Part shown: positions 30,233-64,000 of the stretch, piece after piece | How the letters are laid out: every line of letters starts with the position of its first letter | Position numbering within the stretch: position 1 is the first letter of the stretch | Source: a virus | Lineage: Duplodnaviria; Heunggongvirae; Uroviricota; Caudoviricetes | Virus record (IMG/VR): IMGVR_UViG_3300029554_000003 | Location: 77,064 to 141,063 of that record | Reading direction: 5' to 3' (one strand) | DNA: 64,000 nucleotides | Notes under the pieces: model-generated | What the model saw: only the letters and a program-made list of their open reading frames with translations | Told to the model about the DNA's origin: nothing | Database searches by the model: none | Program-made: the position numbers and the translations under genes

Positions 30233-30456
30233 GTTAATCTTCTTTCTCTTGGAACCCACGGGAGGTTTCTTATCCCCTCCCTTTCTTTAATTATATTATA
30301 CTATAAGTTTTCACTGGCCGCAAGAACTTTTTGAGAATGAATTTGGTTTTCAAAATGAAACTCGAAATGAAAATCAAAATTGAAATTGAAAACCATTTTT
30401 ATAAACCAATAGCGCGTTGGAATCGAAAATTAAAAAGGGTGCGGCTAATTTTTTTC

Positions 30457-30485
30457 TTGACATTGATTTGCTGAACTGGTAAAAT
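30457..30485 (+). promoter_or_regulatory. plus-strand consensus promoter TTGACA-N17-TAAAAT (antisense to the HTH gene)
   Basis: Seen in sequence. It points into the 3' end of the minus-strand gene at 30585..31232. No convincing plus-strand ORF lies downstream. Confidence 0.4.
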
Positions 30486-30584
30486 GCGCACTTACTCCCA
30501 CTAAGTCATGTAATCATTTTTAACCCTATATGGGCTTTTTCACCAGCTTTTGGACACTATTCAAGATTAACTAGACACCATTTT

Positions 30585-31232
30585 TCACTCTATATGGACT
30601 AACTTCCTGAATCTACATCCTTGCTCACCAGACACTTTGGCTACCTTATATCTATATTCTATGATACCCATGTCTTTTAAAGTTTCCAAAGCCTGTCCAA
30701 CCTGCTTATTCTTAGTTCCATGATTATTTACTTTAAGAGTATCACAGATAACCTTATTAGTTATTTCAGGGTCTTTTTTAAAGCAACCGCTTATCGCTTT
30801 ACAAGCACCATATACTCTCAATACCATAACTAAATCTTTGCGGCCAAACCTATTATCGTATATTTTATCATATACCTTTTTATCTACTTTGGCAAATCTC
30901 CACCCTTCATCGAACTTATGCCGCCAATATGTCTTATCTTCTTTCATATCATATTCTAGCATATCGAATTTGCCCATGTCAATATCGTTTACTTCACTGG
31001 GATTGCCAGCATGGTTCAATATGGTATCTTCCAGCTTACGAACACTGCGGCGAATGTTTCTGTCACTCATACCCACTTCTTGTGCCACATCCCACGGTAT
31101 CACTTTTCCATCTACATAGCTTACATTATTGTCTTTTATCTCCATAACCGAACAATTGCGTTGAAACCAGAAATCTATAGCATATTCTGAATCACTCCAA
31201 GGTCTATCGAAAAATATCAATCTTTGCGGCAT
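30585..31232 (-). CDS. helix-turn-helix DNA-binding protein (regulator or initiator candidate)
   Basis: 215 aa. The segment WDVAQEVGMSDRNIRRSVRKLE looks like an HTH. Lies immediately downstream of the iteron array. Confidence 0.45.
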   Translation of the reverse strand: MPQRLIFFDRPWSDSEYAIDFWFQRNCSVMEIKDNNVSYVDGKVIPWDVAQEVGMSDRNIRRSVRKLEDTILNHAGNPSEVNDIDMGKFDMLEYDMKEDKTYWRHKFDEGWRFAKVDKKVYDKIYDNRFGRKDLVMVLRVYGACKAISGCFKKDPEITNKVICDTLKVNNHGTKNKQVGQALETLKDMGIIEYRYKVAKVSGEQGCRFRKLVHIE

Positions 31233-31286
31233 ATAGCATCACTCAAAATAATTGCATAAACACGCGAGTGCGCGAGCGTGTTTAAT

Positions 31287-31458
31287 AACAACTATATAAC
31301 AACTATATAAACAATTATAAAACAACTCTATAACAACTAATATAGGAATACACAAAATGTCCGCATTAGATACACGTTTTGTCCGCATTAGATACACAAA
31401 ATGTCCGCTAAAGATACATGTTTTGTCCGTTTTTGATATACGTTTTTTCCGTTGGACT
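31287..31458. repeat. iteron array: ~5x 11-bp AACAACTATAT, then ~5x ~22-bp ACAC(A/G)…GTCCGCATTAGAT
   Basis: Tandem direct repeats seen directly in the 275-bp intergenic region upstream of the HTH gene. Confidence 0.75.
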
Positions 31459-31508
31459 TGTTTCACTTGCACACTATATGTTGCCAATAAACTAACCATA
31501 CAAATCAC

Positions 31509-32120
31509 TTAACGCTTATTAAGCGCCAAACCCGTCAGTTCAAATAACTTGCAATAGGGATGATTTTCATCTTTATAAGGCTTATACTCAATTAAGCCTT
31601 TGTCCGCAAGCCATTCAACGTACTCTTGAGCAAGCTCACGGTTCTTTTTATTATATGGCATATAGCACATGTCGCAAACATTCTTCATAGAGAAGATATA
31701 ATTACGATGCTTTACATCATGCTGATAATTATACATCTTAGCCAAGCAGCAATAAGCGGTAGTAACCTGAGTGGCATAATCAATCGTCCATTCAAATGGG
31801 AAATCGTCAAAAAGTGAAGCAGTCTGCTCTTCACCCAAGAGAACAAAATAATTATTATTAACACTATAATTATAATTATAATTATATAACTCATTTTCTT
31901 CGTCGAACGGCGTTAGCATTTCATTCTTAATAGCTTTATCTATTAGTTCTTTAAATTCTTTCGCATCACCTGCACCGCCGCAAATGTAATAAATATCGCC
32001 AAGGTTAAAACCATCACGACCATTCTTATCTGCTTCATCTGAACGATACTGCGCCGCAAGCGAAATAAAAGGATTATACTCCTTATCCAGCAGCTTCTTA
32101 CCTAAATCTACTCTATACAT
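31509..32120 (-). CDS. hypothetical protein
   Basis: 203 aa ORF. Confidence 0.4.
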   Translation of the reverse strand: MYRVDLGKKLLDKEYNPFISLAAQYRSDEADKNGRDGFNLGDIYYICGGAGDAKEFKELIDKAIKNEMLTPFDEENELYNYNYNYSVNNNYFVLLGEEQTASLFDDFPFEWTIDYATQVTTAYCCLAKMYNYQHDVKHRNYIFSMKNVCDMCYMPYNKKNRELAQEYVEWLADKGLIEYKPYKDENHPYCKLFELTGLALNKR

Positions 32121-33472: not shown

Positions 33473-33774
33473 TAGACGCTCAAATGACCACCAGCAGCAT
33501 CATACTCGTCAGCATCATGCCAGTAGTAATCACAGACGCACAGGCCAAGGTCCTCAAGGGTATTCTTAGCATCGAGCATTTCCTTTTCAGTACCATAGCA
33601 AGAAACCCAATAGGCACAGCCAGCATAATAATCCTTACGCTCTTCGAGAAGCATGTCGGCAGCAATATTCACCAAAGGAGTAACTTCCTTCCAGAGATTG
33701 CGGCCATTGACAACCTCATATGCCGCGTCCAGAAGACCGTCAACCTGTGCAAGAATCGTCTCAACCTTGGTCAT
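33448..33774 (-). CDS. hypothetical protein
   Basis: 108 aa, directly downstream of a conserved promoter and leader copy (33781-33860). Confidence 0.45.
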   Translation of the reverse strand: MTKVETILAQVDGLLDAAYEVVNGRNLWKEVTPLVNIAADMLLEERKDYYAGCAYWVSCYGTEKEMLDAKNTLEDLGLCVCDYYWHDADEYDAAGGHLSVYWTVNDWD

Positions 33775-34362
33775 ATACTTTCTCCTTCTCTTGGAAGACT
33801 TTATCTTGTCCTCTCCCTTTCTTTAATAATATTATATAACATTATTAGAGAGACTGCAAGAAAAATCTTATACGGCCAATGGCCTTATTCTTTGTGCTCT
33901 TGGATTACCTCGCGCACAAGGAACACAGTCTCCTTTACCGCGTATAAAATCATACAGATACCAACGATAAAGCCAATGGCGCATAGAATAGTAAAGATAA
34001 GCAAACTCATGGAAGAGCTACCAATCAACATCGCCAGATTCATCATGATGTCCATACAGCACGAGAAAACAAATGATAGGACAGGACAGAATAGCACAGA
34101 ATCCAATGATTGTAAAAACAAGACAGACAACTCCTAACACTTCATTAATCATAATCTTCATCGTCCCATACGTCAATCACGTTTCCGAGCCAATCATAAA
34201 AAGTTTCGCCACTGCCGCTTTCAATTTTATTGACGTAATCAGCAATACTATCTGTATCATCAGTGGTATTAAGGGCATCTAAAATATCTTTATAGATATA
34301 ATCCATATAACCTCCAATAGAAAAAGGAGAATAGATTTCTCTACTCTCCTTGTGCGGCCAAT

Positions 34363-35113: not shown

Positions 35114-35536
35114 CTAGTTCTCCTTACCAAAGTCCTTCTGGACCTGCTCGAAATACTTATAAAGGTCATCGTTCAGTTGTCCAAGCATAGCGGTACGAAT
35201 CCAAGCATCGAGCTTGGTAATTCCATCCTGTCCGTGACCAGCAAATTCATACCAAGGAACCTCCATGCCATAATCGTCTTCAAGAAGTTTACGGATCTCT
35301 TCGTCAACGAACATATTCGCAATTTTCTCACTGTCAGATTCATATGTCACGAGAAAACAATCAGGATGCCCCGCAAATGAAGCATTGCCGCACACTTCAT
35401 CAGAAGTAAACATATCATCGCAGACTTCTTCCCAATCGGTATCGGCGTTATATGTGCCGTTCTCGAAGTTGGCAACGATAAAGTTCTTGGCATCATCCTC
35501 GACCATGTTCTTGAAAGAAAAATAAATCCAACCCAT
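35114..35536 (-). CDS. hypothetical protein
   Basis: 140 aa ORF. Confidence 0.4.
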   Translation of the reverse strand: MGWIYFSFKNMVEDDAKNFIVANFENGTYNADTDWEEVCDDMFTSDEVCGNASFAGHPDCFLVTYESDSEKIANMFVDEEIRKLLEDDYGMEVPWYEFAGHGQDGITKLDAWIRTAMLGQLNDDLYKYFEQVQKDFGKEN

Positions 35537-35570
35537 TCTAATTCCTCTCTTGGATAACTAATATACCAGA

Positions 35571-35771
35571 TTAAAGGTTCTCAATGCTGCCAACATACCC
35601 CTCATAGACAAGATGATGCTCACGAAGGTTCTTAGCGGCAACCTCGGCCATGATGCGGTTAAGCTGCTCAAGGCTCTTGAACATGCACTCAGTATACTCG
35701 ATGCCGCAGAAACGACCATCGCCCTCGTAGAACTTGTTGAAGATAATGTTAGCCTTCATGTACTTAGCCAT
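35571..35771 (-). CDS. hypothetical small protein
   Basis: 66 aa, directly after a conserved promoter and leader copy. Confidence 0.4.
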   Translation of the reverse strand: MAKYMKANIIFNKFYEGDGRFCGIEYTECMFKSLEQLNRIMAEVAAKNLREHHLVYEGYVGSIENL

Positions 35772-35868
35772 ATTGGAAAGCCTTTCTTTTTCTCTTGTCT
35801 TTCTTTAATTATATTATATAAGAATGAAAGATGAATCACAAGTATTTTTTTTCTACTCTATTGGTCTG

Positions 35869-36081
35869 TTACAACTTCCTACCACAGATGGGGCAAAAGT
35901 TAATATCAATAGAGCTAGCGGTCGATTCGCCATCTTCGTCCTCAATGCAAATGAATTTGCGCTGCGGATTTTTGTAAACATCGCAAATGGTGATAGAATA
36001 GTCCACACCCTCAGAATATCCATCATCAAGCATGTTTGCGCCAAATCGAACATCGGCAGGGTACTCACAATACTTGCACAT
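35869..36081 (-). CDS. zinc-ribbon small protein (paralogue of 40382..40588)
   Basis: MCKYC…CPICGRKL. Four Cys arranged as CxxC…CxxC. Shares both termini with the 40382 gene. Confidence 0.5.
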   Translation of the reverse strand: MCKYCEYPADVRFGANMLDDGYSEGVDYSITICDVYKNPQRKFICIEDEDGESTASSIDINFCPICGRKL

Positions 36082-36155
36082 AGAAGAACTTCTTTCTCTT
36101 GGTTTCTTTAATTATATTATATAACAATTTCAAACAGAACGCAAGAACCTTTTTT
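36082..36155 (-). promoter_or_regulatory. conserved promoter + leader copy
   Basis: Reverse strand TTGCGT-N17-TATAAT, then ATTAAAGAAACCAAGAGAAAGAAG, then ATG. Confidence 0.55.
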
Positions 36156-37030: not shown

Positions 37031-37278
37031 ATTTACTCCTTAATAAGATAAAAGTTCCCACGTGTTGACCAAAAAGGCTTCATTCGTATCGACAGCATAT
37101 AGAAGAACATGACCATCGCCATAAATCTCTTCAATCTGGCAGATAATGAACTTGCGAGTATAGGGATTAAGATACTGTACATAATCGTTGCGCTTCATAT
37201 ACTTTCCTTTCTCTCTTGGTATACTTATATTATATACTATTATTTCACCATTTGCAAGAAAAATTTTAAGCGTGCGAT

Positions 37279-38786: not shown

Positions 38787-39095
38787 TTACACTCCAAGCA
38801 TATCACAAATAGTGGCGTAAATACACGCACCCTCCATATAATTCGCGCTATATACCTTTATATCCTTAACATAATCACTGCCGAGCTTTGCAACAGTGAA
38901 TCGCGACACATACTCAAAATCCTCGCAGGCAACGTAAGCTGTGACGCTCACATGCTTATCTTCAAAAGCATAAGTATAAGTCTGCTCGTCCATGCTTGCG
39001 ATTGCCACATCCTCATGGCACATGCGCATCACATGGTTGACGTTGGCGAAAACCTGCTTGACAGTCTGCTTAAACTTCTTGCTGCTCTGGGTCAT
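38787..39095 (-). CDS. hypothetical protein
   Basis: 102 aa, after the conserved promoter copy at 39096-39160. Confidence 0.4.
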   Translation of the reverse strand: MTQSSKKFKQTVKQVFANVNHVMRMCHEDVAIASMDEQTYTYAFEDKHVSVTAYVACEDFEYVSRFTVAKLGSDYVKDIKVYSANYMEGACIYATICDMLGV

Positions 39096-39164
39096 GTTTT
39101 ATCCCTTCCTTGTCTTTCTTTATATATATTATATAATAATATAAGACTGGCCGCAAGTATAAAA

Positions 39165-39711: not shown

Positions 39712-39982
39712 TTTCGTCCTCTTCCTCTTCGTTATCCTCAATCCACTCATGGTCTACAGTCATGTATCCAGCTTCTGCCAAGTCATCATACATGTCAAAC
39801 CAAAGATAATCATTCAACTCAGTATTAGTGCGGATAGTTCCATCACCATACAGATCGGCTTCTTCAACCATATTAGAAATATAATCGTAAGCGTCAGGAT
39901 GTTCAACCAAATCATCAAGGCGTGTTTTGCCGCCAGACCAAGCAGGGAACCGATAAAGGGGAGTGTCACAAACGTAACGCAT
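39704..39982 (-). CDS. acidic hypothetical protein
   Basis: 92 aa ending EDNEEEEDEND. Conserved promoter copy upstream. Confidence 0.4.
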   Translation of the reverse strand: MRYVCDTPLYRFPAWSGGKTRLDDLVEHPDAYDYISNMVEEADLYGDGTIRTNTELNDYLWFDMYDDLAEAGYMTVDHEWIEDNEEEEDEND

Positions 39983-40045
39983 GTCTTTCTTCTTTCTCTT
40001 GGCTTTCTTTAATAATATTATATAATATTAAAGAGCGTAGGTCAA

Positions 40046-40588: not shown

Positions 40589-40813
40589 ATAGTCTCCTTA
40601 AAGATAGTAAACATCTTCACGCTTGGCAGTGTGAAATACGCCGTCTTCGTCAACAATAACAAGACTATCGCAGAAGAAAAGAATATCTACAACTACGCCA
40701 TATACATCGCCGTACAGAGCCTTATAAAGAACCTTGGAGCCAATCATGTAATTTCCTTTCCCTTTTGGTCTATATATACTATATAATAATATATAACGAA
40801 ATACAAGAACTTT

Positions 40814-41206
40814 TTAATGCGGCATCAAGAGATTTATAAAGGCTCCATAAGGCGATACAATCCAAGGAATAATAATAGTAAATTCTATAACCGCAATACC
40901 CGCGAAAACTGCACTTAGGCCATAGCAGACATAACTTGTAGCTTCGAGAGCTTCATATTTATTCCTTATGCTACTTTTTTGATACTTTGTTAACGGTAAT
41001 TTCTCCCAGTCAGAATATTCCTTACTTTTAGCCATACAAAATCGAGCTACAACCAAAAGAGCAATAGCAAGAACAGCAAGGACGATAACTTTACTGGCAT
41101 ATGCTGCAATCACATATGAAGCGTATGCGGGAATCATTTCTTTTGTGACAGCGCCTACAGCAATTCCAAGTTGATTTGCAATTTCTTTAATAACTTCTGT
41201 ATCCAT
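40814..41206 (-). CDS. membrane protein (paralogue family D)
   Basis: 130 aa. N-terminus …EVIKEIANQLGIAVGAVTKEMIPAYA…, then two transmembrane segments. Paralogue of the 41224 gene. Confidence 0.45.
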   Translation of the reverse strand: MDTEVIKEIANQLGIAVGAVTKEMIPAYASYVIAAYASKVIVLAVLAIALLVVARFCMAKSKEYSDWEKLPLTKYQKSSIRNKYEALEATSYVCYGLSAVFAGIAVIEFTIIIPWIVSPYGAFINLLMPH

Positions 41207-41589: not shown

Positions 41590-42521
41590 TATTCAGATTC
41601 CTTCATCATCGCACGGCCTAAATCGGTGATAACACGACCACGTGGCTGTTTTTGAATATAACGCTTGGATAACAGATAAGGCTCAATCTTCGTCTGTACA
41701 GTATCTTTATCCATACCAAGAGTAAGACAAATTGTATCCACACCTACAGCACGCGTATTGCTGTTAAGGAAATTCATATAATCCATATCATCTTGATTAA
41801 GACCAAACTTATTAATTCCCATCACATATAGGGCTTCATCAACAATTTCAGGATTGATTACACCATCATTCATAACCAATGCAAAATCATATACACGGGC
41901 TACATAAGAGTTGGCATTGCGTGGAATACCGCGAGTAGTTGCCGCAATCTTATAGACACTCTCTTCATCAATCTTGATTTTCTTCTCTTGACAAATCTTC
42001 TCTACAATAGATGCCATATCAGCTTTAGAGTATGCGGCCAATTTAATTTGAATAGGAAAACGGTTCAAAAGCGCATCATTAAGACCACCATAAAGATTAG
42101 TTGCGGCAATAAGAGTAAAATGCGGCAAGCTCACCCTTGTCGCCACTCCGTCCACTACAACATCTGCTTGGAACTGCTCCATTGCAAAATATAGAGACTC
42201 TTGCAATCTTTGGCTAATTCTATGAATTTCGTCGATGAAAAGTACGTCATTGTCTTTAAGATTAAGAAGAATCTCGTCAATTACCTTCTTATCATTAATC
42301 GCAGGGCCAGAGAAAGCCTTAAACCCGTAGCCAAGCTCGTGCGCGATTACATTAGCTGTCGCTGTTTTCCCGCACCCAGACTGGCCTGTAATAATCGTAT
42401 GCGGGAAAGACTCCTTCTTAATCTGCGCTGCTTTAATATAGATTTGCAACATCTTTTGGACTTTTGGCTGTCCTTTCAAATCTTCAATCTTACAAGGACG
42501 GAAACCGAACTCAGAAGCCAT
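41589..42521 (-). CDS. RuvB-like AAA+ ATPase (Holliday-junction helicase homologue)
   Basis: Likely start is MASEFGFRP at 42521. Walker A GQSGCGKT. Walker B VLFIDEIHR. Sensor and arginine-finger region …FTLIAATNLYGGLNDALLNRF… Overall collinear with RuvB. Confidence 0.6.
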   Translation of the reverse strand: MASEFGFRPCKIEDLKGQPKVQKMLQIYIKAAQIKKESFPHTIITGQSGCGKTATANVIAHELGYGFKAFSGPAINDKKVIDEILLNLKDNDVLFIDEIHRISQRLQESLYFAMEQFQADVVVDGVATRVSLPHFTLIAATNLYGGLNDALLNRFPIQIKLAAYSKADMASIVEKICQEKKIKIDEESVYKIAATTRGIPRNANSYVARVYDFALVMNDGVINPEIVDEALYVMGINKFGLNQDDMDYMNFLNSNTRAVGVDTICLTLGMDKDTVQTKIEPYLLSKRYIQKQPRGRVITDLGRAMMKESE

Positions 42522-42614
42522 ATAAAATCCTTTCTGCTTCATTTCTTAAATATATTATATCATTTTATATGGCTTACTACAAGAAAAAAAATAGGGCTAT
42601 TTCTAGCCCTACCA

Positions 42615-46306: not shown

Positions 46307-46313
46307 ATTTTAG

Positions 46314-51637: not shown

Positions 51638-51869
51638 TATTAAATCACTAATTATGAAAGAATGACACCCTGCTTCGCCTTGTTAATCTTGCGGCGAAGT
51701 TTGCGCATGATACCTACATTCTCTGAGTTCTTTCCCTTACGATTGATAAGCATCTGATAACGCTGCTCCATCGTCTCGACTGACTGTGCCATACTTTCTT
51801 ACCTTTCTCTTGGTTAAATATATTATATCAAATTACTCAACCATTTGTCAAGTAATTTTTTATAACAAA

Positions 51870-52300: not shown

Positions 52301-52324
52301 ACCTTCACGATTTTGTTAATTATA

Positions 52325-52365
52325 TTATATAAAATTACTTGGTATTTGTCAAGTAATTTTTTTAA
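52325..52365 (-). promoter_or_regulatory. tRNA cluster 2 promoter (TTGACA-N17-TATAAT)
   Basis: Reverse strand TTGACAAATACCAAGTAATTTTATATAATATAATTAACAAAATCG. Near-identical to the promoter and leader at 46598-46640. Confidence 0.6.
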
Positions 52366-52590
52366 CAGGCTGGCTCTTTCTGTGCTGCCCAGAAATTTTA
52401 TGATTCAGAGTCATATGTTCTACTGTTGAACTAAGAGCCAAAAAGTGGGCAAATTTATATAGCGACTGCCCAAACCGCTAAATTGACTTGGGGTAGTACA
52501 GGCGAGTTCAAAGCTCGGTCTACTACCACTTGGAGAGTGTCTAAGATTAGCACTCTATTTTAGTAATATATATATTACTAAAATACAACA

Positions 52591-53232
52591 CTAACTTTCT
52601 ACATATTCCCAATGGAAACCATACGATGTTTTGTTAATATTTTCACAAACCTGCTTAATATGCCTTGAAATTCCTTGTATAGATTTATTTGTAGTATAAT
52701 TGTTATCAAATAACCATTGAGACGCATCGTGCAATGATTGAAAAATTTTATTTTCTTCTATCAGTCGCACTTTTTTAGAATATCTTTCTTTACAAAGAGT
52801 ATTTGGTCGTAGCATTTCTATGCCACATTGTTTACATGCAAGTCGGACAGTATCAGCGCAACAATGAAAATATTTTGCTACTTTTATTGTATCATGTGTT
52901 TGTGAATACATGTCAGCTATTTTTTTATAATCATAAAATGAACAACCGTCTCCACCAATTGTAGCATTGTATCCATTGCGATAAGTATCTAATTTTGTTA
53001 TCCAATACTTTTCTTTTTCGTCAACTTCATCTGACGAACATTCTTCTAATTGAAAGGCATGAAAGTGCTCTACGCCATATTTTTTCATAGCTTTATAAAG
53101 AGGTCTACCTTGTATTTGTTCTTTTTTGCTGTCGCTTAAATGTTGGGCGAATCTTCTCTTAATTGTAAAATTAGTTTTTCCAACATATTTTTTGTTGTTG
53201 ACATCATTTACAATAACATAAATATAAGACAT
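52591..53232 (-). CDS. GIY-YIG homing endonuclease (second copy)
   Basis: Likely start is MSYIYVIVNDVNNKKYVGKT at 53232. Paralogue of 46645..47280, also adjacent to a tRNA-cluster promoter. Confidence 0.65.
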   Translation of the reverse strand: MSYIYVIVNDVNNKKYVGKTNFTIKRRFAQHLSDSKKEQIQGRPLYKAMKKYGVEHFHAFQLEECSSDEVDEKEKYWITKLDTYRNGYNATIGGDGCSFYDYKKIADMYSQTHDTIKVAKYFHCCADTVRLACKQCGIEMLRPNTLCKERYSKKVRLIEENKIFQSLHDASQWLFDNNYTTNKSIQGISRHIKQVCENINKTSYGFHWEYVES

Positions 53233-53502
53233 TTTATCACCCACTTAAATAATGAATGGAGCCAACTTAGGGTGCTGCCCCCTATGCTTCGCTTTACAAG
53301 AGCGATGTATTACTGTTATACTAAGCTGGCTTTACCAAAAAGAAAAATGAGCCTGCAATACTCTAGAAATCTTGCAGGCTCTAACACCACTATTACAATA
53401 TAAAAGTTGCGCAACAAAAATTATAACTTTTTGTCCAGAACTTTTATTTTGTAACTAAAAATATTATATCATATTGATATAAAGTCTGTCAAGAACTTTT
53501 TT

Positions 53503-54066: not shown

Positions 54067-54400
54067 ATACTTGGCAGGAAAGGTTTAAGTCCATAAGATT
54101 GGCGTAAATATCACTAAGTCGATTCGCAATATCTGCACGAGTGTTATTCTTGCACGAACGACCATTAAGATTCTTAATCTCGTTTTCCAAGTCACTCAGC
54201 TCAGAGTTGATGGCATGTTGTACCTCGTACAAATCATCACCAATAAGACCTTCAACACCAGTTGCGTAATTCGTATTGTGATAATTGAAAAGCATCATGG
54301 ACTCTAGTTCATCATAGTTGAAGCCGTTCTCTTTCAAGCAAACGTCCAAGTCGCGCTTCGAGTCAATATTGTAATATTTATCTTTGACAAACAAATCCAT
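54047..54400 (-). CDS. hypothetical protein
   Basis: 117 aa, after the conserved promoter copy at 54401-54460. Confidence 0.4.
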   Translation of the reverse strand: MDLFVKDKYYNIDSKRDLDVCLKENGFNYDELESMMLFNYHNTNYATGVEGLIGDDLYEVQHAINSELSDLENEIKNLNGRSCKNNTRADIANRLSDIYANLMDLNLSCQVYDRDTL

Positions 54401-54465
54401 GATACCTTCCTCTCTTTCTTTAACTATATTATATAACTTCTTAAACCTCTTGGCAAGAACTTTTT

Positions 54466-54885
54466 TTAACCAAATAGCTTTAGCAGACGGGCAAAATCTT
54501 GGTCAAGAAGAGACTCATAGGAAGGACGGCTTGTGCGAACAGTCTTTGCATCCTTGGTATCCTTTTCAATTTCCTCAATCTGCTTCTTGATTTCCTCAGC
54601 CTGAGACTTTAGGTCAGCGAGCTTAGCCGCACGCTCTTCACGCTCCTTCTTAATCTTCTCAGCCTGCTCCTTATCCTTTTTCTGCTTACGGCCATTGGAT
54701 ACAGTCATAAGCTCACGTGTAAGAGTGCTAGTCAGTTCATCAATAACCTTCATAACATCTTTGCCACTAGCTTTATGGTCTAGGTCAAGACCGTCCGAAT
54801 CAGTTACATGTACACCAAAGTCTACGACACCATCCTCATTTGCTGTCATAGCTAGATTAAAATTTAGACCATAAGATTCTGCCAT
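54466..54885 (-). CDS. hypothetical protein with K/E-rich coiled coil
   Basis: 139 aa ORF. Confidence 0.4.
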   Translation of the reverse strand: MAESYGLNFNLAMTANEDGVVDFGVHVTDSDGLDLDHKASGKDVMKVIDELTSTLTRELMTVSNGRKQKKDKEQAEKIKKEREERAAKLADLKSQAEEIKKQIEEIEKDTKDAKTVRTSRPSYESLLDQDFARLLKLFG

Positions 54886-54978
54886 TTACCATTCTCCTTT
54901 TAATTCTTTTGTTCCTTTAACTTCGTTAATATTATAACAAATATTTTTCTAGAAGTCAACTATTTTATTGAAAATATT

Positions 54979-55848: not shown

Positions 55849-56661
55849 TTAATTTGTAAAACGGATTTGCTTCTTCTTTAAAACCTCGCCAAGAGACAGA
55901 AAATCTTCACATTTATTACAATGGTTTGATAGACGCTTGCAACAACGACGCTCGCAGTTAATTTTGCTTGCAGTGAAACTTGGGTGGATTGCGTCACAAT
56001 GAAAATCCATATCTACATCTTCATTGATTTCACTCATTTGACCATGCCAATATTTATTAATGAACCATGCACGATATAAGACATCAAACTTTGCCCAATC
56101 ACATGGCAAACCGCATTCAAATTCAAAGACATCAAAATACGGATTGATAGTATCCATATCTTTTGGCATAAAGATTGGAGCCTTTGGATTGATACCACGG
56201 TCAAGTGTCATTGACGGCACCTGATTTAAAATTAGCCGCATTTGAACATTATTCTCTTGACAAATATCATGAACATTCTTTAGATTATAACATAAATCAT
56301 CGGCAATATATACATCAGATACACCTAAATTGATAAAAGACTCAAGACAGGAATAGGTTGGAACCTTCATATCTTGATTAAAAAAAAACTTATATGAATT
56401 TTCTTTAAGCTCTGCGGCCTTTGTAATGTCTGTTGGTGCTACGCGGATATAAATCTTGTCTGACACCTTGTTAATTGACTTGACGGTAGGCATATGAATA
56501 CCTTCTGGGAATTCAAGATTGATACGAGTATCCTCATACTCCTGCGCAAAGTCAATTAGATCCTCAATTGAATTGCGAGATTTGTAAAAGAGAATGTTAA
56601 ACTCTTTAACTTCATCGTTCAATTCGCCATTCAATTGAAATGGAATTGCCAATTTAATCAT
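55849..56661 (-). CDS. hypothetical protein with C-terminal Cys cluster
   Basis: 270 aa ending …CERRCCKRLSNHCNKCEDF…. Confidence 0.4.
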   Translation of the reverse strand: MIKLAIPFQLNGELNDEVKEFNILFYKSRNSIEDLIDFAQEYEDTRINLEFPEGIHMPTVKSINKVSDKIYIRVAPTDITKAAELKENSYKFFFNQDMKVPTYSCLESFINLGVSDVYIADDLCYNLKNVHDICQENNVQMRLILNQVPSMTLDRGINPKAPIFMPKDMDTINPYFDVFEFECGLPCDWAKFDVLYRAWFINKYWHGQMSEINEDVDMDFHCDAIHPSFTASKINCERRCCKRLSNHCNKCEDFLSLGEVLKKKQIRFTN

Positions 56662-57204
56662 ATATCATCCTTTCATAATAACCTATTTTATATTATATAA
56701 CAAAAAAGGGCAATTGTCAAGAGACAATCACCCTAAAAATCATTAAAGATATGCGGCCAAACGATTCCACAACCATTGTGGCAAATCAGAAGTCTCGACC
56801 TCATAATCATCCAAGAGGTCATAAACAATATCGGCAGAAGCGTGCCCATCATATTCAGTTTCAATTGTCTGAATTACATAATTTACCTTCTGCTCCATCT
56901 CTTCCTCGGCAGCAAGAAGCATCATGGGATTGCCCACAGAATTGTCCATGTGCAGCATTATTAGTCCTCCATCAAAATGTCGACAATCTTGAACATGTCT
57001 GCGGAGATACGCTCTACGCGCACACCGTAAATGATGTGAATCATGTCAATTGCACCATCAACATGATATCCAGAACCATCATCACGATGCTCAAGATAAT
57101 AATTTGCAAGGTGCAGAATAGCAGCGTTGTAAGAAGCCATCATATCTTTTCCTCTCTCTTGGCTATACCATAATTATAGCATATGATATAGCCAATCGTC
57201 AAGA

Positions 57205-58152
57205 TTAATTTTCAAACCAGTTTCGCAACTCGATAACCGAGGGGCAAGTTCCACGACCTTTCTCGCGGCACTCTTCTACAAACTCAGGGATTGCGTCCAT
57301 GAGACGAGGTTCAAATGCAAGCTTGGTCTTGATGTTCTTGATAGCATCAATGTCGCGTCCAGTCCAAACCTGCTGTAAAACTCCACGAGCCTGCTTCCAG
57401 TTCTTGTACCAAGGAGTCTTATATTTCACCATGAAACCGTTCGCATCCTCGAAGACAAAGCCCTCGATGTATGCACGTGCGGCCCACTTGTCAATAAAGG
57501 CTTCAAACTCCTGCCAGTTAGCAATGACTTTGCTAAGAACCTTGCAATAGAATCCGAAATGTCCCGCTACGTCAATAAGTGTATAGTACCCCGCATGGCT
57601 ATAGTTGAAATCATTGTACACCAAGTCCAAAAGCACGAGGTGAGGATGCGAATACTCAACAATATGCGGGTCATGGATAGGGTCAATGCACTCGAAGACA
57701 GCAGTGCAGTCATTCTTGTGCAGATATTCTGCGAATTCCTCCTGCTGTGCAGTGGTCAACGTCTTGTCAAGAACGTCACGGATATATCCCGCGAAGTCTC
57801 CTTCATTCGTGCTCTTGGATGCGATGAACAGTTTACCGTCCTCGGTCGGGTCGGCAGAAATCATCGCAAGGAATCCGTTAGACTTGACATATGCACACAC
57901 AGGGAACACAAGATTCTCGCGCAGGCTAGCCATTTCAGTCTCAGGACGTTCTCCAATATTGAAGAACTTGTTGTACGAACGTGCAACAACCTTATTATCA
58001 TCTTTTACAAAAAGTCCGCGTGCTTTAACATTAATATCATCCCATGCTTGGTTGAAAAAGCACTTGTTTGAGAAATTAAAAGAAGAGATTCCATTGGCAA
58101 GATGTTTCTCGCGCACAAGCGAGCTATTACGCAGTATATCGACTTCGTTCAT
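57205..58152 (-). CDS. ATP-dependent RNA ligase-like nucleotidyltransferase
   Basis: Candidate motif I is K in VKSNGFLAM. Motif IV is EGFVFED. Motif V is VKYKTPWYKNWK. At 315 aa the size fits the Rnl2/DraRnl class. Confidence 0.5.
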   Translation of the reverse strand: MNEVDILRNSSLVREKHLANGISSFNFSNKCFFNQAWDDINVKARGLFVKDDNKVVARSYNKFFNIGERPETEMASLRENLVFPVCAYVKSNGFLAMISADPTEDGKLFIASKSTNEGDFAGYIRDVLDKTLTTAQQEEFAEYLHKNDCTAVFECIDPIHDPHIVEYSHPHLVLLDLVYNDFNYSHAGYYTLIDVAGHFGFYCKVLSKVIANWQEFEAFIDKWAARAYIEGFVFEDANGFMVKYKTPWYKNWKQARGVLQQVWTGRDIDAIKNIKTKLAFEPRLMDAIPEFVEECREKGRGTCPSVIELRNWFEN

Positions 58153-58200
58153 TTATCTTCCTCTCTCTTGGTTTAATAATATTATACCATATATAAGTGT
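58153..58200 (-). promoter_or_regulatory. conserved promoter + leader copy
   Basis: Reverse strand TTGCCG-N17-TATAAT then TATTAAACCAAGAGAGAGGAAG. Confidence 0.5.
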
Positions 58201-58467
58201 GTGCGGCAAATATTTTTTTCTACAAAAAAAAGGAAAAGGAACTAGTCCTTTCCCTTAGTAGCATTTTCTTCAAATTCCATGCGCTCTAACTTTTCCTTAC
58301 GTTTTGCCTTATAAGTATCGTCTTTGCGCTGACGAATTAGCTTTGCTTTATGGGAAAACTTTTCAAAAGTATCATCATCGCTATACTCAAGTTCGTCCCA
58401 GTCACGAATTTTCACAATAAATCCTTTCAAAGAAAAATGCTGTCTAATATAAGTCTGACAATCTGTC

Positions 58468-58948: not shown

Positions 58949-59392
58949 CTAATATACTTTTTCATAAATAAAAGAATCGTCACCAGTATAATAAAAATGC
59001 TGGATACCCTTATCACGCAAAGCGTGCAAGCACGCAGGACAACTTCGTGCTAAACCGAAATTAAATCGCTTTCCATTGCAGATACGATAAGTATATACCT
59101 TTACCTTTGAATAGTCAAGGTTGACATCAATACACTTTGGAATATTCAAAAGACAATCAATCTCTGCATGAAGATAATCATGAATAGGTTGACCATTCTC
59201 TCTAAACGTGCGATATTTGCGATTATACTTCTTTTGCAAAGGATTGGTCTTGCGACTATTGTGACCAGTAGCAAGAACTTTGCCTTTATAAGACATAACA
59301 GTGCCGAGTTTGAAAGGTTTATATGTAGATTCCAGTGCCGCCTTTCGCGCCAAATCAAACATCTTCATATCATGCTTACTAAACTCAGCCAT
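58949..59392 (-). CDS. CDA-fold zinc deaminase (dCMP deaminase or TadA-like)
   Basis: HAEIDCL (H-A-E) and SCPACLHAL (PCxxC) zinc-binding motifs. 147 aa. Confidence 0.55.
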   Translation of the reverse strand: MAEFSKHDMKMFDLARKAALESTYKPFKLGTVMSYKGKVLATGHNSRKTNPLQKKYNRKYRTFRENGQPIHDYLHAEIDCLLNIPKCIDVNLDYSKVKVYTYRICNGKRFNFGLARSCPACLHALRDKGIQHFYYTGDDSFIYEKVY

Positions 59393-59688
59393 TTATTAAA
59401 TCCTTTCACATCTTATATTATATATAATATCATAAGATGTATCCAGCGTCAAGAACTTTATTTCACCAAAGTAAAATTAGGATGATAACCAATTGACTTG
59501 CCGCATAGTGTAAGCAAGTTTACACAATTCGAGATAATACGCTCATACTCTTTAGTGCTATTGGCATTCTCCAATAGAGAGATAGAAGCGGCCATAGAAG
59601 TTTTTGCAAACTCTACAGGGCTTAACTCAATATAGATTTTTGTTTCTGGTGATAAATCATTCCAGTTCATATAACAGCATTCCCATCT

Positions 59689-61283: not shown

Positions 61284-61626
61284 AATTGTTCCTTTCAAAT
61301 ATAAAATCAAGAGACTCCTACTGGTAATGCTCCAGTTTAAACGCCTTTGCAGGACGCTGCATAACTTTTCTGCCAAGGAGTTTCTTGACTTTATACTTGT
61401 ATTATATTATATATAAAGCCAAAGGTTAATTAAAACATTTCAAGAAATGCCTTATAGATTTCAAAACGAAACTTTTCAAAACGTGCGGCAAGTGCAACAT
61501 ATGAATAGCCGCATATAAAAAGTACGTATAGTACAAATAGACAATCTGCCATTATTACTCCCTAGAATTAAACATAAGACATGCTACAGTGTAGCCGAAA
61601 AAAGAAACCAATAGCAAAACAAATCA

Positions 61627-61809
61627 TTATTTCTTCTTCCAAATATTATCGCAGGTATATGGAACATTGTCAATATTTTTCTGTTGCGGACTTGCCTTAG
61701 AACGAATCTTTCTAGTTTCTAGCGCTATATGCTCCATATAACATTTTCCAACAATTGCCGCAATCACAAGAATAGTGATACAAATAATTGTAATAGACCC
61801 AATATCCAT
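61627..61809 (-). CDS. small membrane protein
   Basis: 60 aa with an N-terminal transmembrane segment (IICITILVIAAIVG). Conserved promoter copy upstream. Confidence 0.4.
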   Translation of the reverse strand: MDIGSITIICITILVIAAIVGKCYMEHIALETRKIRSKASPQQKNIDNVPYTCDNIWKKK

Positions 61810-61895
61810 TTTATCTCTTTCTCTTGGATTTTATTTGAATCTATTATATAATAAAAAAGTCCCAAAGTCAATAGAAACTTTGGGACTAATTTATA

Positions 61896-62828
61896 TTATT
61901 TTGTATTGACTACTGGAGTAGAGCCTTGCGGCACAACGACAGTATTACCATTCTTTGACATTTCCTTTAGAGCATCAATGTACTCTTGGGTTAGAACATT
62001 ATCAGTTAGAGACTCGTTGAGTACACGGTTTGCTTCTGCTTCTTTAGTAGCTTCAATAACCTTAGTCTCACCCTTAATCTTTGCAGTCTCCTGCTGATTC
62101 TGAGCCTTAGCTTTCTCTACTTCTGCGGCCTGAGAATCAGCATAAGCATTGGTAATGGATTTAGCATAAGAAATATCCTGAACGCTTACTTGCTCAACAG
62201 TAAGACCAATCTTAGACCACTTCTTTTCAAGAGCTTTTTGGACAGCCTTTGTGTACTGAGCGCGGTCAGTTAGCATTGTAATTGTATCGAATTGACCTGA
62301 AACTTCACGTGCAACAGAGCGTAGGTCATTAGCCGCGTAATTCTTAGTAAAGTTCTCTTGAGTGCCATATTCAGTGTAAAGATACTCAGCCGTCTTCGGG
62401 TCAAGGCTGTAGTTAATCTGAATATCAACATTAGCAGAAGAACCTGACTTATCATTTACAGTTACGCAAGGACCATCAGCGGAGCCACCATCATAGGAGT
62501 ATTCTGTGTCTTTACCGTAAAAGTTGATTAGGTTATTGCGCGTATCAAACGTAATTATATTGTTCCAAGGCGCAGTGAAATGAAAGCCTGCGTCTGTAGT
62601 AGACCCAGCTAGATTGCCGCCAAGAGAACGAAGAACAACTACTTCACCAACGTCTTGAGAATAGATGCTGCTAAGACCAATAGCAACTAGACCAAGCACG
62701 ATAACTATGACTCGCCTTCCTAGCGGAATACGCTCTTCATGTTCGTCTTCTTTGAAGAAGGATAGACATGTAGCAATTCCAGTAATCGTAATAAGAATAC
62801 CGATAGTAAAAAAAAGAATTTTAAACAT
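61896..62828 (-). CDS. SPFH/band-7 (stomatin/prohibitin-like) membrane protein
   Basis: Two N-terminal transmembrane segments, then an SPFH-like core (…VGEVVVLRSLGGNLAG…FHFTAPWNNIITFDTRN…), then an Ala/Glu/Lys-rich coiled-coil tail. Confidence 0.5.
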   Translation of the reverse strand: MFKILFFTIGILITITGIATCLSFFKEDEHEERIPLGRRVIVIVLGLVAIGLSSIYSQDVGEVVVLRSLGGNLAGSTTDAGFHFTAPWNNIITFDTRNNLINFYGKDTEYSYDGGSADGPCVTVNDKSGSSANVDIQINYSLDPKTAEYLYTEYGTQENFTKNYAANDLRSVAREVSGQFDTITMLTDRAQYTKAVQKALEKKWSKIGLTVEQVSVQDISYAKSITNAYADSQAAEVEKAKAQNQQETAKIKGETKVIEATKEAEANRVLNESLTDNVLTQEYIDALKEMSKNGNTVVVPQGSTPVVNTK

Positions 62829-62870
62829 TATAACCTTTCATCGTAGTTTGCTTCAATATTCAATTGTAAA

Positions 62871-63383
62871 CTAAATTGCTTTTAGCTGGTCAATGATTGG
62901 CAAAATTTGCATATTATTTGTGCCGATAGCGTAATTTTGCTGCTCTGAAATAAACACAATTCTGTCAAACGGCTCCCTGTCTTGCGGCGAAACCTTGCAT
63001 CTATACATTTCTGCAATTTCTTTTTCGCTTAGACGATGATATTTATCACGATTCTTATTGCGCGCAACTGCTACATTCTGTGGAGTCTCAACCCAAACAC
63101 AAATCACTTCACAACCATTGTAATTGACATTGTTGAAAAACTTATCGCGCTCGACACGATTGATATTGCGGTCATTTGCCACAACATAGCGATGTGATTT
63201 TAGAGCAATGTTGACTGCATTGTAGAAACGTTTGTCAACTGTATTAGCATCTTCTGAATTATACATGCGGCAATTGTCTCGCTTGATTGTCATACAATCT
63301 TCGTGCGAATCTTGAATTGCCTTTGCAAATACAGATTTACCACTTTGAGGTACACCGCACATTAAAATCAATGTATGCTTCAT
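62871..63383 (-). CDS. P-loop polynucleotide-kinase-like protein (second copy)
   Basis: LILMCGVPQSGKS Walker A. 170 aa. Paralogous in architecture to 44337..44816. Confidence 0.5.
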   Translation of the reverse strand: MKHTLILMCGVPQSGKSVFAKAIQDSHEDCMTIKRDNCRMYNSEDANTVDKRFYNAVNIALKSHRYVVANDRNINRVERDKFFNNVNYNGCEVICVWVETPQNVAVARNKNRDKYHRLSEKEIAEMYRCKVSPQDREPFDRIVFISEQQNYAIGTNNMQILPIIDQLKAI

Positions 63384-63389
63384 TTTAAC

Positions 63390-63770
63390 CTACCAATAAA
63401 TAGAGTACCTACTAATTGTAATATCAATACGGTCAACACCACGGAAAAATGTAACTTGACAATTTGACTCACGAGCTACGTGGTAGTTAAGAGAATCTTC
63501 AAGTGCGTCAAAAACTTCTTTTTGTTGGTTGGTAAAATCTTTTTCATCTGCTGGTACAAGTTTGCCGCTTTGAATGATTTTATCATAGAAATCTGAATCA
63601 TGCGGGAAAAGTTCTACCTTTGTCTTACCGCTATTGGCAGCTGCGGCAATCTCTTCCATTACAGTATTAAAATAGTCATATTTCTTAGCACGTTCAAATC
63701 GTTCGGTCTTCTTTTTTTCTAGCGCAGCGTTGCGCATCTGTCGTGCTTTTTCCACCGTAATTGGTTCCAT
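63390..63770 (-). CDS. hypothetical protein
   Basis: 126 aa, after the conserved promoter copy at 63771-63850. Confidence 0.4.
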   Translation of the reverse strand: MEPITVEKARQMRNAALEKKKTERFERAKKYDYFNTVMEEIAAAANSGKTKVELFPHDSDFYDKIIQSGKLVPADEKDFTNQQKEVFDALEDSLNYHVARESNCQVTFFRGVDRIDITISRYSIYW

Positions 63771-64000
63771 GTAATATCCTTTCTTTTATGCGTTGGCTAT
63801 ATTATAAACTATAGCTATTATATTTGTCAATAGTTTTTTAGAAATAATTTGAGTAAAAAATTTTTCTTGACAAAAGATTTGACAATCATTATACTTTTAA
63901 CTGGGTTGTTAAGGGGTTTACCCCTTAAATATATATAAAATAAATTATATTAGTTTATAATATAATTACACTAGTTTATAAATATATATATTGACTTTTA

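Follow-up and report, generated by a model that had tools for sequence, protein, structure and literature searches.

Near-consensus promoter units in the early arm of an uncultured gut phage and the genome-wide word CCAANAG in their leaders

The stretch of DNA analysed here (the window) is 64,000 nt long and corresponds to positions 77,064 to 141,063 of the IMG/VR record IMGVR_UViG_3300029554_000003, a virus of the Caudoviricetes. An earlier reading of the bare sequence had noticed that almost every gene block on its minus strand is preceded by a near-consensus promoter joined to a conserved 5' leader. Our analysis of about 25 such units suggests, with moderate confidence, that they are conventional early-expression cassettes, and that the core of the leader, CCAANAG, is a separately selected word which the phage would keep at the DNA level over its whole genome and which is embedded in these cassettes.

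The only DNA found in common between the window and other phage records lay in transfer RNA (tRNA) genes. The portal protein (13141-14742, minus strand) shows 40% identity to that of phage phAss-1 from the human gut and about 30% identity to portals of Enterococcus and SPbeta-like phages. Exactly this portal sequence was found on contigs of 142-144 kb from several human metagenome assemblies, where its neighbours belong to the SPbeta families YonD_N and YonB. Judged by these matches, the source is an uncultured human-gut siphophage of about 143 kb with SPbeta-like structural genes and phAss-1 as its nearest named relative. The phAss-1 paper predicts Clostridia (Eubacteriales) as hosts and does not mention promoters. 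Late and structural genes occupy the minus strand from 1 to 19.7 kb and include a phage sigma-factor gene (18584-19672, minus strand). A module of higher GC content with genes mostly on the plus strand extends over 20-29 kb, and the early or accessory arm (29.4-64 kb, minus strand) comprises about 75 small genes and 13 tRNA genes. All open reading frames (ORFs) were called mechanically.

Motif counts bear out that dense near-consensus promoters of the sigma-70/sigma-A type are oriented along with the small early and accessory genes. TTG-N20-TATAAT, which corresponds to a 17-nt spacer, occurs 29 times in the window versus 1.75 ± 1.4 times in shuffled sequences, and 26 of the 29 lie on the minus strand; if spacers of 16-19 nt are allowed, there are 38 matches on the minus and 10 on the plus strand. 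The 24 copies listed by the sequence-only reading all contain a promoter-like element. In 23 of them it consists of TTGNNN, a spacer of 17 or 18 nt and TATAAT (or TATAGT or TATTAT), and the last one (61377-61440) is a weaker TTAACC-N17-TATAAT ahead of tRNA-Cys. Four more units had been overlooked, two within the range of that list (56720-56692 and 54959-54931) and two beyond it (19741-19713, before the phage sigma-factor gene, and 2290-2262). Two scans of the region from 28 to 64 kb revealed 12 of 12 consensus positions at 7 sites and 11 of 12 at 8 sites. The information profile of 25 aligned units shows a conserved upstream A-tract followed by TTC, then TTGAC and a T at both -5 and -3 before the -10 hexamer, and, in its 3' part, an invariant TATAAT followed by ATA-TTAAAGAAAG, the -10 hexamer being embedded in TATATAATATAAT. 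About 25 of the promoters are intergenic with an ATG or a tRNA 20-60 nt further on, and terminator hairpins adjoin or overlap the -35 element in about 6-7 of the 25 units (at 61887, 58256, 56734, 50059, 45322 and 42613). Genes internal to operons have plain AAGGAG sites. The noted likeness to strong early phage promoters also stands, since the arrays are comparable to the early regions of T5, SPO1 and T4. By their motif content, such arrays mark the early arm as dependent on host RNA polymerase, which is routine for big phages, and the sigma-factor gene fits this early class because it has the same promoter-leader type (19741-19672).

For the plus-strand module, a second class of promoters with TATACT and a TGT extension had been proposed, and this is weakly borne out. 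The motif TGNTATACT is present in 8 copies versus 2.7 expected, of which three or four stand before plus-strand genes: the copies at 21315, 21810 and 23846, and a fourth site at 22520 in which CGT replaces TGN. Extended -10 promoters are ordinary for sigma-A, and the TATAAT- and TATACT-type promoters, which had been put forward as two temporal classes, are both sigma-A-like and have the leader word in common. Two perfect TTGACA-N17-TATAAT promoters on the minus strand (22434-22462 and 23403-23431) point against the plus-strand module. They share a downstream TTTCTGCCCA-N-ATGG, with a related GCCCATAAAATGGC at about 19830 and about 24170, and may yield short divergent or antisense transcripts.

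The conserved leader is statistically real: CCAAGAGAAAG with at most one mismatch gave 25 matches versus 0.99 expected, and TATAATATWATTAAAGAAA with at most three mismatches gave 13 versus 0.31. It is not invariant as had been described, since the exact word CCAAGAG occurs in only 11 of the 24 listed sites and a one-mismatch variant (ACAAGAG, CCAAAAG or CCGAGAG) in 3, while the remaining ones are followed by plain AAAGGAG-type sites or tRNA genes; TTAAAGAAA is present in about 11 of the 25 aligned units. The leader can be divided into three parts. The first is a start region, TATAAT-ATAATTAAAGAAAG, which also stands behind TTGACA-N17/18 promoters in the IMG/VR contigs L013, L015, L017, L018, L022 and L065. 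These contigs share no significant DNA with the window save a 96-nt match in L018, so that this part reflects the general look of a strong promoter in these hosts.

The second part is the clade-specific word CCAANAG. CCAAGAG ends 10-14 nt ahead of the start codon in every leader copy, and the block CCAAGAGAAAGRAG, which is used by early and plus-module genes and not by late genes, ends 4-8 nt before the ATG. From the -10 hexamer the word is separated by 8-15 nt where the leader is short and by 36-37 nt in the two long leaders (30252 and 33794). A consensus promoter is lacking for the copies at 29810 and 35553, and the plus-strand genes at 21856 and 23886 with their TGNTATACT promoters have the word as well. 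This constant distance to the ATG, together with a varying distance to the -10 hexamer and with other promoters or none, ties the word to the translation start and not to a promoter class, and the idea that the leader is fused to the TATAAT class had to be given up.

The third part is the purine run after the word (AAAGAAG, AGAGGAAG or AAGGAGAA). With an assumed Firmicute-type 16S tail, GAUCACCUCCUUUCU, which may not be that of the host, the predicted pairing has a mean of -8.8 kcal/mol for genes with CCAANAG versus -7.4 for other ATG genes, and AGAAAG of the leader is predicted to pair with the terminal CUUUCU of this tail. The run thus pairs like the sites of other genes, and since its predicted pairing is adequate, the word does not replace the Shine-Dalgarno sequence, contrary to the suggestion of an enhancer in place of a canonical site. 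The predicted fold of the region from -30 to +30 is weaker in CCAANAG genes (-5.7 versus -8.1). Short leaders of about 20-30 nt, with 5' ends inferred, have a minimum free energy (MFE) of 0 and no structure; in long leaders a hairpin occupies the 5' side and the word and the Shine-Dalgarno sequence are left unpaired; and the promoter-less copy at 29810 lies 3 nt past a strong hairpin (-23.7 kcal/mol, z -3.6). A search for known RNA families in the leaders with Rfam at gathering thresholds returned nothing but tRNAs.

The units and related copies are as follows, with unit coordinates given from the lower to the higher position.

63768-63830, minus strand: TTGACA-N18-TATAAT, AAAGAAAGGA Shine-Dalgarno, ATG 63770; without CCAANAG
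61807-61887, minus strand: terminator hairpin over the -35, TTGACT-N17-TATAAT, CCAAGAG 61827-61821, ATG 61809
61383-61429, minus strand: TTAACC-N17-TATAAT (weaker), then tRNA-Cys 61382-61311
59390-59452, minus strand: TTGACG-N17-TATTAT, GAAAGGA Shine-Dalgarno, ATG 59392 (dCMP-deaminase-like gene); without the word
58150-58256, minus strand: terminator 58256-58230, TTGCCG-N17-TATAAT (CCGCA word in the -35), CCAAGAG 58171-58165, ATG 58152 (Rnl1-type RNA ligase)
57141-57202, minus strand: TTGACG-N18-TATAAT, CCAAGAG 57162-57156, ATG 57143
56659-56734, minus strand: terminator over the -35, TTGACA-N17-TATAAT, GAAAGGA Shine-Dalgarno, ATG 56661; absent from the earlier list
54883-54959, minus strand: TTGACT-N17-TATAAT, longer leader, AAAAGGAGAA Shine-Dalgarno, ATG 54885; absent from the earlier list
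54398-54456, minus strand: TTGCCAAGAG (word over the -35), N17-TATAAT, TTAAAGAAAGAGAGGAAGG, ATG 54400
53463-53492, minus strand: TTGACA-N18-TATAAT, ahead of a tRNA region (Rfam tRNA 53330-53260)
52324-52352, minus strand: TTGACA-N17-TATAAT, then tRNA-half-like sequences; no ORF
51790-51851, minus strand: TTGACA-N18-TATAAT, CCAAGAG 51813-51807 (8 nt past the -10), ATG 51792
51474-51536, minus strand: TTGACTTTTGG (antisense word variant at the -35), TATAAT, CCGAGAG variant, ATG 51476
49976-50059, minus strand: terminator 50059-40, TTGACTATTGG (antisense word variant at the -35), TATAAT, GAAAGGAGA Shine-Dalgarno, ATG about 49978 (phosphoesterase)
48903-48967, minus strand: TTGACTTTTGG, N-TATAAT, full leader TTAAAGAAACCAAGAGAAAGAAG, ATG 48905
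46607-46635, minus strand: TTGACA-N17-TATAAT, then tRNA-half-like sequences
45215-45322, minus strand: terminator 45322-45290, TTGACA-N18-TATAAT, TTAAAGAAAGACCAAGAGAAAGAAT, ATG 45217
42519-42613, minus strand: terminator 42613-42590, TTGTAG-N17-TATAAT, AGAAAGGA Shine-Dalgarno, RuvB-like gene; without the word
40745-40817, minus strand: TTGTAT...TATAGT, CCAAAAG variant 40768-40762, ATG 40747
39980-40045, minus strand: TTGACC-N17-TATAAT, full leader TTAAAGAAAGCCAAGAGAAAGAAG (MFE 0), ATG 39982
39093-39156, minus strand: TTGCGGCCA (TGCGG in the -35), TATAAT, TAAAGAAAGACAAGGAAGGGA, ATG 39095
37196-37257, minus strand: TTGCAA-N17-TATAAT, CCAAGAG 37219-37213 (9 nt past the -10), ATG 37198
36079-36144, minus strand: TTGCGT-N17-TATAAT, full leader TTAAAGAAACCAAGAGAAAGAAG, ATG 36081
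35769-35841, minus strand: TTGTGA-N17-TATAAT, TTAAAGAAAGACAAGAG variant, ATG 35771
33772-33859, minus strand: TTGCAG-N17-TATAAT, TTAAAGAAAG, inserted hairpin, CCAAGAGAAGGAG, ATG 33774
30230-30323, minus strand: TTGCGGCCA-N-TATAAT, TTAAAGAAAG, inserted hairpin (-12 kcal/mol), CCAAGAGAAAGAAG, ATG 30232
19670-19741, minus strand, beyond the earlier range: TTGCTC-N17-TATAAT, CCAATAG variant, AGAAGGAG, ATG 19672 (phage sigma-factor gene)
29783-29848, minus strand, promoter-less copy: hairpin (-23.7 kcal/mol, z -3.6), CCAAGAGATAGAAGGAAG, ATG 29785
35534-35553, minus strand, leader word without consensus promoter: CCAAGAGAGGAATTAGA-ATG 35536
21810-21858, plus strand, gene of the plus-strand module: extended -10 TGCTATACT, word as CCAAGAGAAGGG, ATG 21856
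23846-23888, plus strand, gene of the plus-strand module: TGTTATACT, CCAAGAGAAAGGA, GTG 23886

Over the window as a whole, no 7-mer is more over-represented than CCAAGAG on either strand: the plus strand has 25 copies and the minus strand 29, compared to about 4 per strand expected from a second-order Markov model (54 versus 8.5 on both strands, about six-fold). The copies are spread evenly (4-8 per 8-kb bin, near-Poisson spacing), and the late region holds 14 of them. Neither a strand polarity along the window nor an extended context around the non-leader copies was seen. ORFs contain the word 16 times in sense and 20 times in antisense orientation, versus 2.4 ± 1.4 and 4.4 ± 2.0 in synonymous-codon shuffles. 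In a conservative gene set, restricted to ORFs of at least 100 amino acids with the first 10 codons removed, late genes contain 4 sense and 7 antisense copies versus 0.7 and 1.3 in synonymous shuffles, and early genes 6 and 8 versus 1.1 and 2.0. When the window was pooled with six divergent late loci, enrichment was lost upon single-base changes except at position 5, where it amounts to 6.0-fold for G, 3.5-fold for T, 2.7-fold for C and 1.9-fold for A, with a preference for a 5' T (10-fold); the leader variants CCAATAG and CCAAAAG show the same tolerance at this position as the genome-wide copies. An artefact of codon usage or codon pairs is ruled out by the synonymous shuffles and by the lack of enrichment of one-mismatch neighbours other than those at position 5.

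The word is also conserved. Non-leader sites are intact in 73% of orthologs versus 46% of phase-matched neighbouring 7-mers, and leader sites in 89% versus 57% of controls, counts which are not independent events, as the relatives are partly redundant. CC precedes AAGAG in 54 of its 226 occurrences. Words are found inside promoter elements too, as TTGCCAAGAG at 54456 and as TTGACT[A/T/C]TTGG at 50032, 48967 and 51536 and twice in the relative L236. Among late-region loci of relatives, enrichment of CCAAGAG extends down to about 60% portal identity (e.g. 27 versus 3.5 in L163), and two sites in the portal gene are retained in all enriched relatives. No enrichment was found in L156, in lineages of at most 59% portal identity or in phAss-1, and in a small sample of unrelated phage loci there was none with convincing enrichment, as might be seen for a word imposed by the host. 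A full-text literature search for CCAAGAG with phage gave no mention, nor did we find an account of a start-associated or leader motif whose core is a strand-symmetric word selected genome-wide. Taken together, the pattern suggests that the CCAAGAG core of the leader is at least partly a DNA-level word.

Other members of the same portal family have words of their own. L210 (IMGVR_UViG_3300021399_000111) is rich in AGAGAGG (18 versus 2.3, antisense-biased) and L156 in CACGAGG/CCACGAG. It may be typical of the family that genome-wide words differ from one lineage to the next. In addition, a non-coding stretch of about 1 kb (19750-20730) between the sigma-factor gene and the plus-strand module contains direct repeats of CTTAGGTCGGTAATTTGT (20594 and 20639) and a C10/G8 palindrome, CGCCCCCCCCCCTATAGGGGGGGGC (about 20693-20722). 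Its counterpart in L163 (160-720) is a non-coding stretch with 5 direct copies of CCAAGAGCAAA in about 550 nt. The stretch could act as an origin or terminus, or as an array of sites for a binding protein.

A second word, TGCGG/CCGCA, is about 7-fold enriched on both strands and, inside ORFs, beyond codon usage. TGCSGCA is present in 67 copies in the window versus 7.3 expected, on both strands, with TGCGGCAA (35 copies) and TGCGGCCA (23 copies) as its forms, and TGCCGCA is 6.9-fold enriched in the window and six divergent loci pooled. This enrichment spans a wider family than that of CCAAGAG, including relatives with 27% GC, and was not detected in phAss-1. The word also enters the -35 variants TTGCGG and TTGCCG, as in TTGCGGCCA (30323-30315 and 39156-39148) and TTGCCGCAC (58209; word 58208-58202). 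A link between the two words was rejected, because their spacing is random and their mutual distance equals the random expectation.

The exact 21-mer TTAAAGAAASCCAAGAGAAAG was found in 17 further IMG/VR contigs, which are 80-147 kb long and all belong to a single gut dataset. These contigs are 80-93% identical to the window and mosaic relative to it. Aligned orthologs show a conservation of 0.95-1.0 for the segment that spans -35 and leader, versus 0.75-0.95 for flanking coding DNA. Two deletion junctions lie exactly in the leader (44838/48913 in L026 and 44838/45225 in L127), and at 33803-33862 duplicate copies of the promoter flank extra cassettes. Clusters of breakpoints fall within units 20 times versus 10.2 for random positions. 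Near gene starts, breakpoints were found at 9 of 21 starts with a unit versus 33 of 56 without, that is, no excess at units, and since the rate at unit starts is not above that of other gene starts, a special role in recombination is not supported. The longest shared stretches (at least 24 nt, 5 units) would reflect copying of whole cassettes.

As for the genes behind the units, the early arm encodes proteins for RNA repair (an Rnl1-type RNA ligase and two polynucleotide-kinase-like proteins), a phosphoesterase, a RuvB-like ATPase, a dCMP-deaminase-like protein, radical-SAM and SPFH proteins, and two GIY-YIG endonucleases. A search of neighbouring ORFs for regulator candidates with Pfam and PHROGs returned only matches to RNA-repair, nucleotide-metabolism and homing-endonuclease families.

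We favour an explanation by early-expression cassettes with an embedded DNA-level word. A full unit would begin with a terminator hairpin and T-run, or with an A-tract, continue with a TTGACA-like -35, a spacer of 17 or 18 nt, TATAAT within TATATAATATAAT and the A-rich start region TTAAAGAAAG, and end in a structure-free, all-purine leader of about 20-30 nt, whose AGAAAG(G/A)AG would pair with the 16S CCUCCUUUCU-3' tail. The strong promoters would lead to high initiation, and a ribosome bound within at most about 15 nt of the 5' end would give efficient translation and also shield the mRNA from 5'-end-dependent decay, as with SP82, aprE and hbs. A DNA-level need for the word at about 1 copy per kb would be satisfied where a copy is cheap, that is, at synonymous sites, joined to the purine tract that immediately precedes the Shine-Dalgarno sequence, or in the spacer and -35, as TTGCCAAGAG and TTGACTNTTGG; TGCGG would be housed likewise in TTGCGG and TTGCCG hexamers. 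Since AAGAG is already purine-run sequence to which only CC is added, such a fusion would fix orientation as well as spacing from the ATG. The motifs with their statistics and spacing, the predicted pairing and folding, and the conservation are what the sequence itself shows; where transcripts start, when they are made, whether ribosomes protect them and why the word is kept are points that we infer from it.

Several points weigh against this explanation. Cheap housing is an argument from parsimony; candidate roles of the genome-wide word are those of Chi-like protective, priming, and architectural or regulatory protein sites. The 16S tail used for pairing is assumed. In L236 (85% portal identity) the early arm has 26 CCAAGAG copies in 21 kb, only about 6 of them of the leader type, and the density of the word is higher there than in the late region (1.24 versus 0.69 per kb), so that copies in leaders are not plain replacements for those in coding sequence. 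Furthermore, the exact word in 11 of about 25 leaders amounts to about 60 times its genome-wide density per base, and all leader copies are sense-oriented. Given this density, an extra leader-specific role is quite possible, either at the RNA level as a regulator or RNase site or at the DNA level as an operator similar to SPBRE/MrpR (PMC10516654).

The first of these roles, taken as the whole explanation, would make CCAANAG a single-stranded binding or cleavage site of a phage regulator which co-regulates early mRNAs, for example by shutting them off; a RegA-like translational repressor, a RegB-like endoribonuclease or a ribosome-contacting enhancer are candidates. The constant distance to the ATG and the uniform sense orientation of leader copies agree with this idea, as do the unpaired state of the word, with hairpins always upstream, its occurrence with two promoter classes and before promoter-less internal genes, the 89% versus 57% conservation of leader copies, and the lack of leader use in late genes. 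Such an RNA element would leave unexplained why antisense copies and copies in late genes are equally enriched and conserved. CCAANAG cannot be accounted for by RNA alone, given that selection maintains it, with identical degeneracy, on either strand throughout the genome. The word is also missing from half of the early units, RNA-binding and RNase families were not found among the early ORFs scanned, and the downstream Shine-Dalgarno sequence is already adequate; we therefore regard this explanation as unlikely. A DNA operator, bound by a phage protein at +2 to +16 and at the -35 in order to shut early promoters, with the scattered copies acting in roadblock or compaction, would fit the strand-symmetric, genome-wide enrichment. 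The protein could be a master repressor (SPbeta MrpR/SPBRE, L5 stoperators) or an architectural one (SPO1 TF1, phi29 p6). Words do overlap the -35 (TTGACTNTTGG, TTGCCAAGAG) and the early transcribed region, inverted pairs surround the core promoter at 48967, 51536 and 50032, the CCAAGAGCAAA copies of L163 form a direct-repeat array in non-coding DNA, and SPBRE offers a precedent from a lineage with related structural genes (PMC10516654). The position of the word follows the ATG and not the promoter, however, with 8-15 or 36-37 nt from the -10 or no promoter at all, and only a minority overlaps the -35. In both long leaders it adjoins the Shine-Dalgarno sequence, most copies lie in ORFs far from promoters, seven bases, one of them free, would make a short operator, and no candidate for the binding protein appeared among the ORFs scanned, most of which are without family match. 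We give this possibility a low probability.

Recombination offers another account, in which the units would be kept, like PeSL elements, because they offer portable homology by which related phages can exchange small genes. It draws on the composite architecture of terminator, near-consensus promoter and Shine-Dalgarno sequence (PMC4122927), the mosaicism of the 80-93% identical relatives, the two deletion junctions in the leader, the duplicated promoter copies around extra cassettes, and breakpoint clusters in units at twice the random number (20 versus 10.2). It is improbable in our judgement, since unit starts are no likelier breakpoints than other gene starts (9 of 21 versus 33 of 56, a comparison on a small scale) and the word inside late genes is left unexplained. 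More speculatively, CCAANAG could be the recognition word of a single clade-specific nucleic-acid-binding factor of phage or host, acting genome-wide on DNA and on early leaders as well. Its DNA role would be Chi-like end protection, priming or architecture, and for roughly half of the early genes it would also recognise the single-stranded leader or the initially transcribed DNA. If this tentative and rather doubtful idea were true, genome replication or maintenance would be coupled to early expression via a shared 7-mer, reminiscent of T4 gp32, gp43 and RegA.

Under the favoured combination of early cassettes and embedded word, the new element is the proposed DNA-level role of CCAAGAG, which the sequence-only reading did not foresee and which a purely post-transcriptional reading does not explain. 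CCAAGAG is kept at about 1 copy per kb even at synonymous sites of capsid and portal genes, among relatives down to about 60% protein identity, in a clade of widespread, uncultured human-gut phages. Words that are strand-symmetric, evenly spread and lineage-specific suggest that some system recognises them in DNA, be it for end protection, for priming or through an architectural or regulatory protein. Finding the reader of the word would explain a constraint on coding as well as regulatory sequence and might reveal the host, and the units could provide ready-made strong promoter and ribosome-site parts for Clostridia-type hosts.

Further explanations of the leader sequence were considered and gained no support. 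A host 16S tail extended as ...CCUCCUUUCUCUUGG, with the word as part of a long Shine-Dalgarno sequence, is not supported: a metagenome scan for GGATCACCTCCTTTCTNTTGG gave 35 matches, of which 2 were true 16S ends, both without CTCTTGG and both non-gut, and the others were reverse complements of strong ribosome sites. A host search with the exact leader in 185,579 genomes yielded 3 chance matches in unrelated taxa. The gut contigs L244, L258, L259, L266, L268, L270 and L274 (45-55% GC) contain a recurring gene start, TATAATG-CCAAGAGAAAGGAGGTGATCC-TG-GTG, with the same arrangement of word and Shine-Dalgarno sequence and a perfect long Shine-Dalgarno. As a lead to the host, the gut bacterial locus TATAATG-CCAAGAGAAAGGAGG was discarded, for the word is not enriched around it and the likeness is probably coincidental. 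An anti-leader RNA was suggested by three CTCTTGG/CTATTGG words on the minus strand between 29260 and 29050, before a terminator at 29086-29056, and is without support, as no promoter for it is conserved (TTGACA in the window only). The words are located at 29250-29234, 29179-29169 and 29113-29107, and the first one is kept in relatives. Upstream of them, between the convergent modules, a block of 65 nt (29285-29350) with the imperfect palindrome AAATGTAACTAATTTAGTCACATTT is identical in all six aligned relatives, while its flanks are 76-94% identical. This region is conserved at the nucleotide level for other reasons, including the palindromic block.

Two promoters of the early arm (46635-46607 and 52352-52324, minus strand) are followed by no ORF. 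In the adjacent regions (46386-46600 and 52190-52320) each leads to a piece resembling a tRNA 3' half (GGTTCGACTCC T-arm and acceptor 3' strand), a short hairpin loop and then a piece resembling a 5' half with acceptor, D-arm and anticodon loop. Both loci lie just downstream of a GIY-YIG endonuclease ORF (46645-47280 and 52591-53244), and they could represent permuted or split tRNAs or a scar of a homing endonuclease. At 46313-46385, 47563-47638 and 47433-47524, ARAGORN reported two tRNA-??? with 8-nt anticodon loops and a tRNA-Ile(tat) of 92 nt, long enough to contain an insertion; it overlooked the Rfam tRNAs at 52370-52440 and 53260-53330. In the late part, the terminase-like ORFs 15237-17093 and 17005-18771 overlap, the second one has HNH/Lar-like matches, and some relatives have an HNH_3 ORF at this position (15237-18771), so the packaging-gene region has probably been invaded by a mobile endonuclease.

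Known systems share single traits with the units and the word. The Chi sequence of B. subtilis is AGCGG. Like Chi, CCAAGAG is a strongly over-represented short word with degeneracy at a single position, and TGCGG resembles AGCGG; in contrast to Chi, there is no orientation bias here, and the constant distance to start codons has no known counterpart in Chi. The L5 stoperators of Cluster A mycobacteriophages are operator-type elements scattered over the genome, and MrpR/SPBRE of SPbeta is a further precedent of the operator type (PMC10516654). Both resemble the present case as short conserved elements at many early promoters of a large temperate phage with further copies scattered over the genome, but they comprise 13-15 bp and are intergenic and linked to promoters, whereas CCAANAG has 7 nt, is linked to start codons and elsewhere lies mostly in ORFs. 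Kammerer et al. in 1986 reportedly found that early promoters of T5 carry a conserved A- or purine-rich initially transcribed sequence which affects promoter strength. The host-takeover module of SPO1 is described, in the portion of PMC6873191 that cites Stewart 1998, as clusters of small early genes with a strong sigma-A promoter and ribosome site for each group. With SPO1 and T5 the units share early gene groups behind strong sigma-A/sigma-70 consensus promoters and strong ribosome sites, while there is no sequence relationship and a clade-specific 7-mer is not known in their leaders.

A ribosome or polypurine near the 5' end stabilises Bacillus mRNAs such as SP82 early RNA, aprE and hbs (PMC7509114, PMC5737220). 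The common trait is a purine-rich ribosome-binding sequence in a 5'-proximal place on a Firmicute mRNA or an early phage mRNA, and the leaders have an unstructured run complementary to the anti-Shine-Dalgarno sequence near the predicted 5' end (-8.8 kcal/mol, MFE 0); the known stabilisers need no CCAANAG, and a stabilising role here would follow from the sequence only. The start-associated sequences (SAS) of Cluster K mycobacteriophages (PMC3203893) are likewise short, asymmetric, clade-specific and conserved a few nt before many non-structural starts, and combine a Shine-Dalgarno core with conserved bases unable to pair with 16S. Their consensus, GGGATAGGAGCCC, and their lineage are not those of the phage studied here, and they occur in one orientation in one genome half, whereas the core 7-mer is present on both strands throughout, structural genes included. 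Closest in architecture are the PeSL elements of T4-type phages, composites of terminator, near-perfect promoter and Shine-Dalgarno sequence (PMC2839356, PMC4122927). Shared are the AT-rich tract, a near-perfect TTGACA-N17-TATAAT, Shine-Dalgarno sequence and start codon, in PeSLs often behind a stem-loop, the concentration among small ORFans in plastic regions, and some indel junctions inside units. The lineage and host phylum are unrelated, in contrast, and here the upstream hairpin is found in only about 6-7 of 25 units, breakpoints are no commoner than at other gene boundaries, and a leader word with genome-wide enrichment has not been reported for PeSLs. The units thus appear to work like the PeSL, SPO1 and T5 early cassettes, and the differences in sequence, lineage, breakpoint distribution and orientation place them outside these families.

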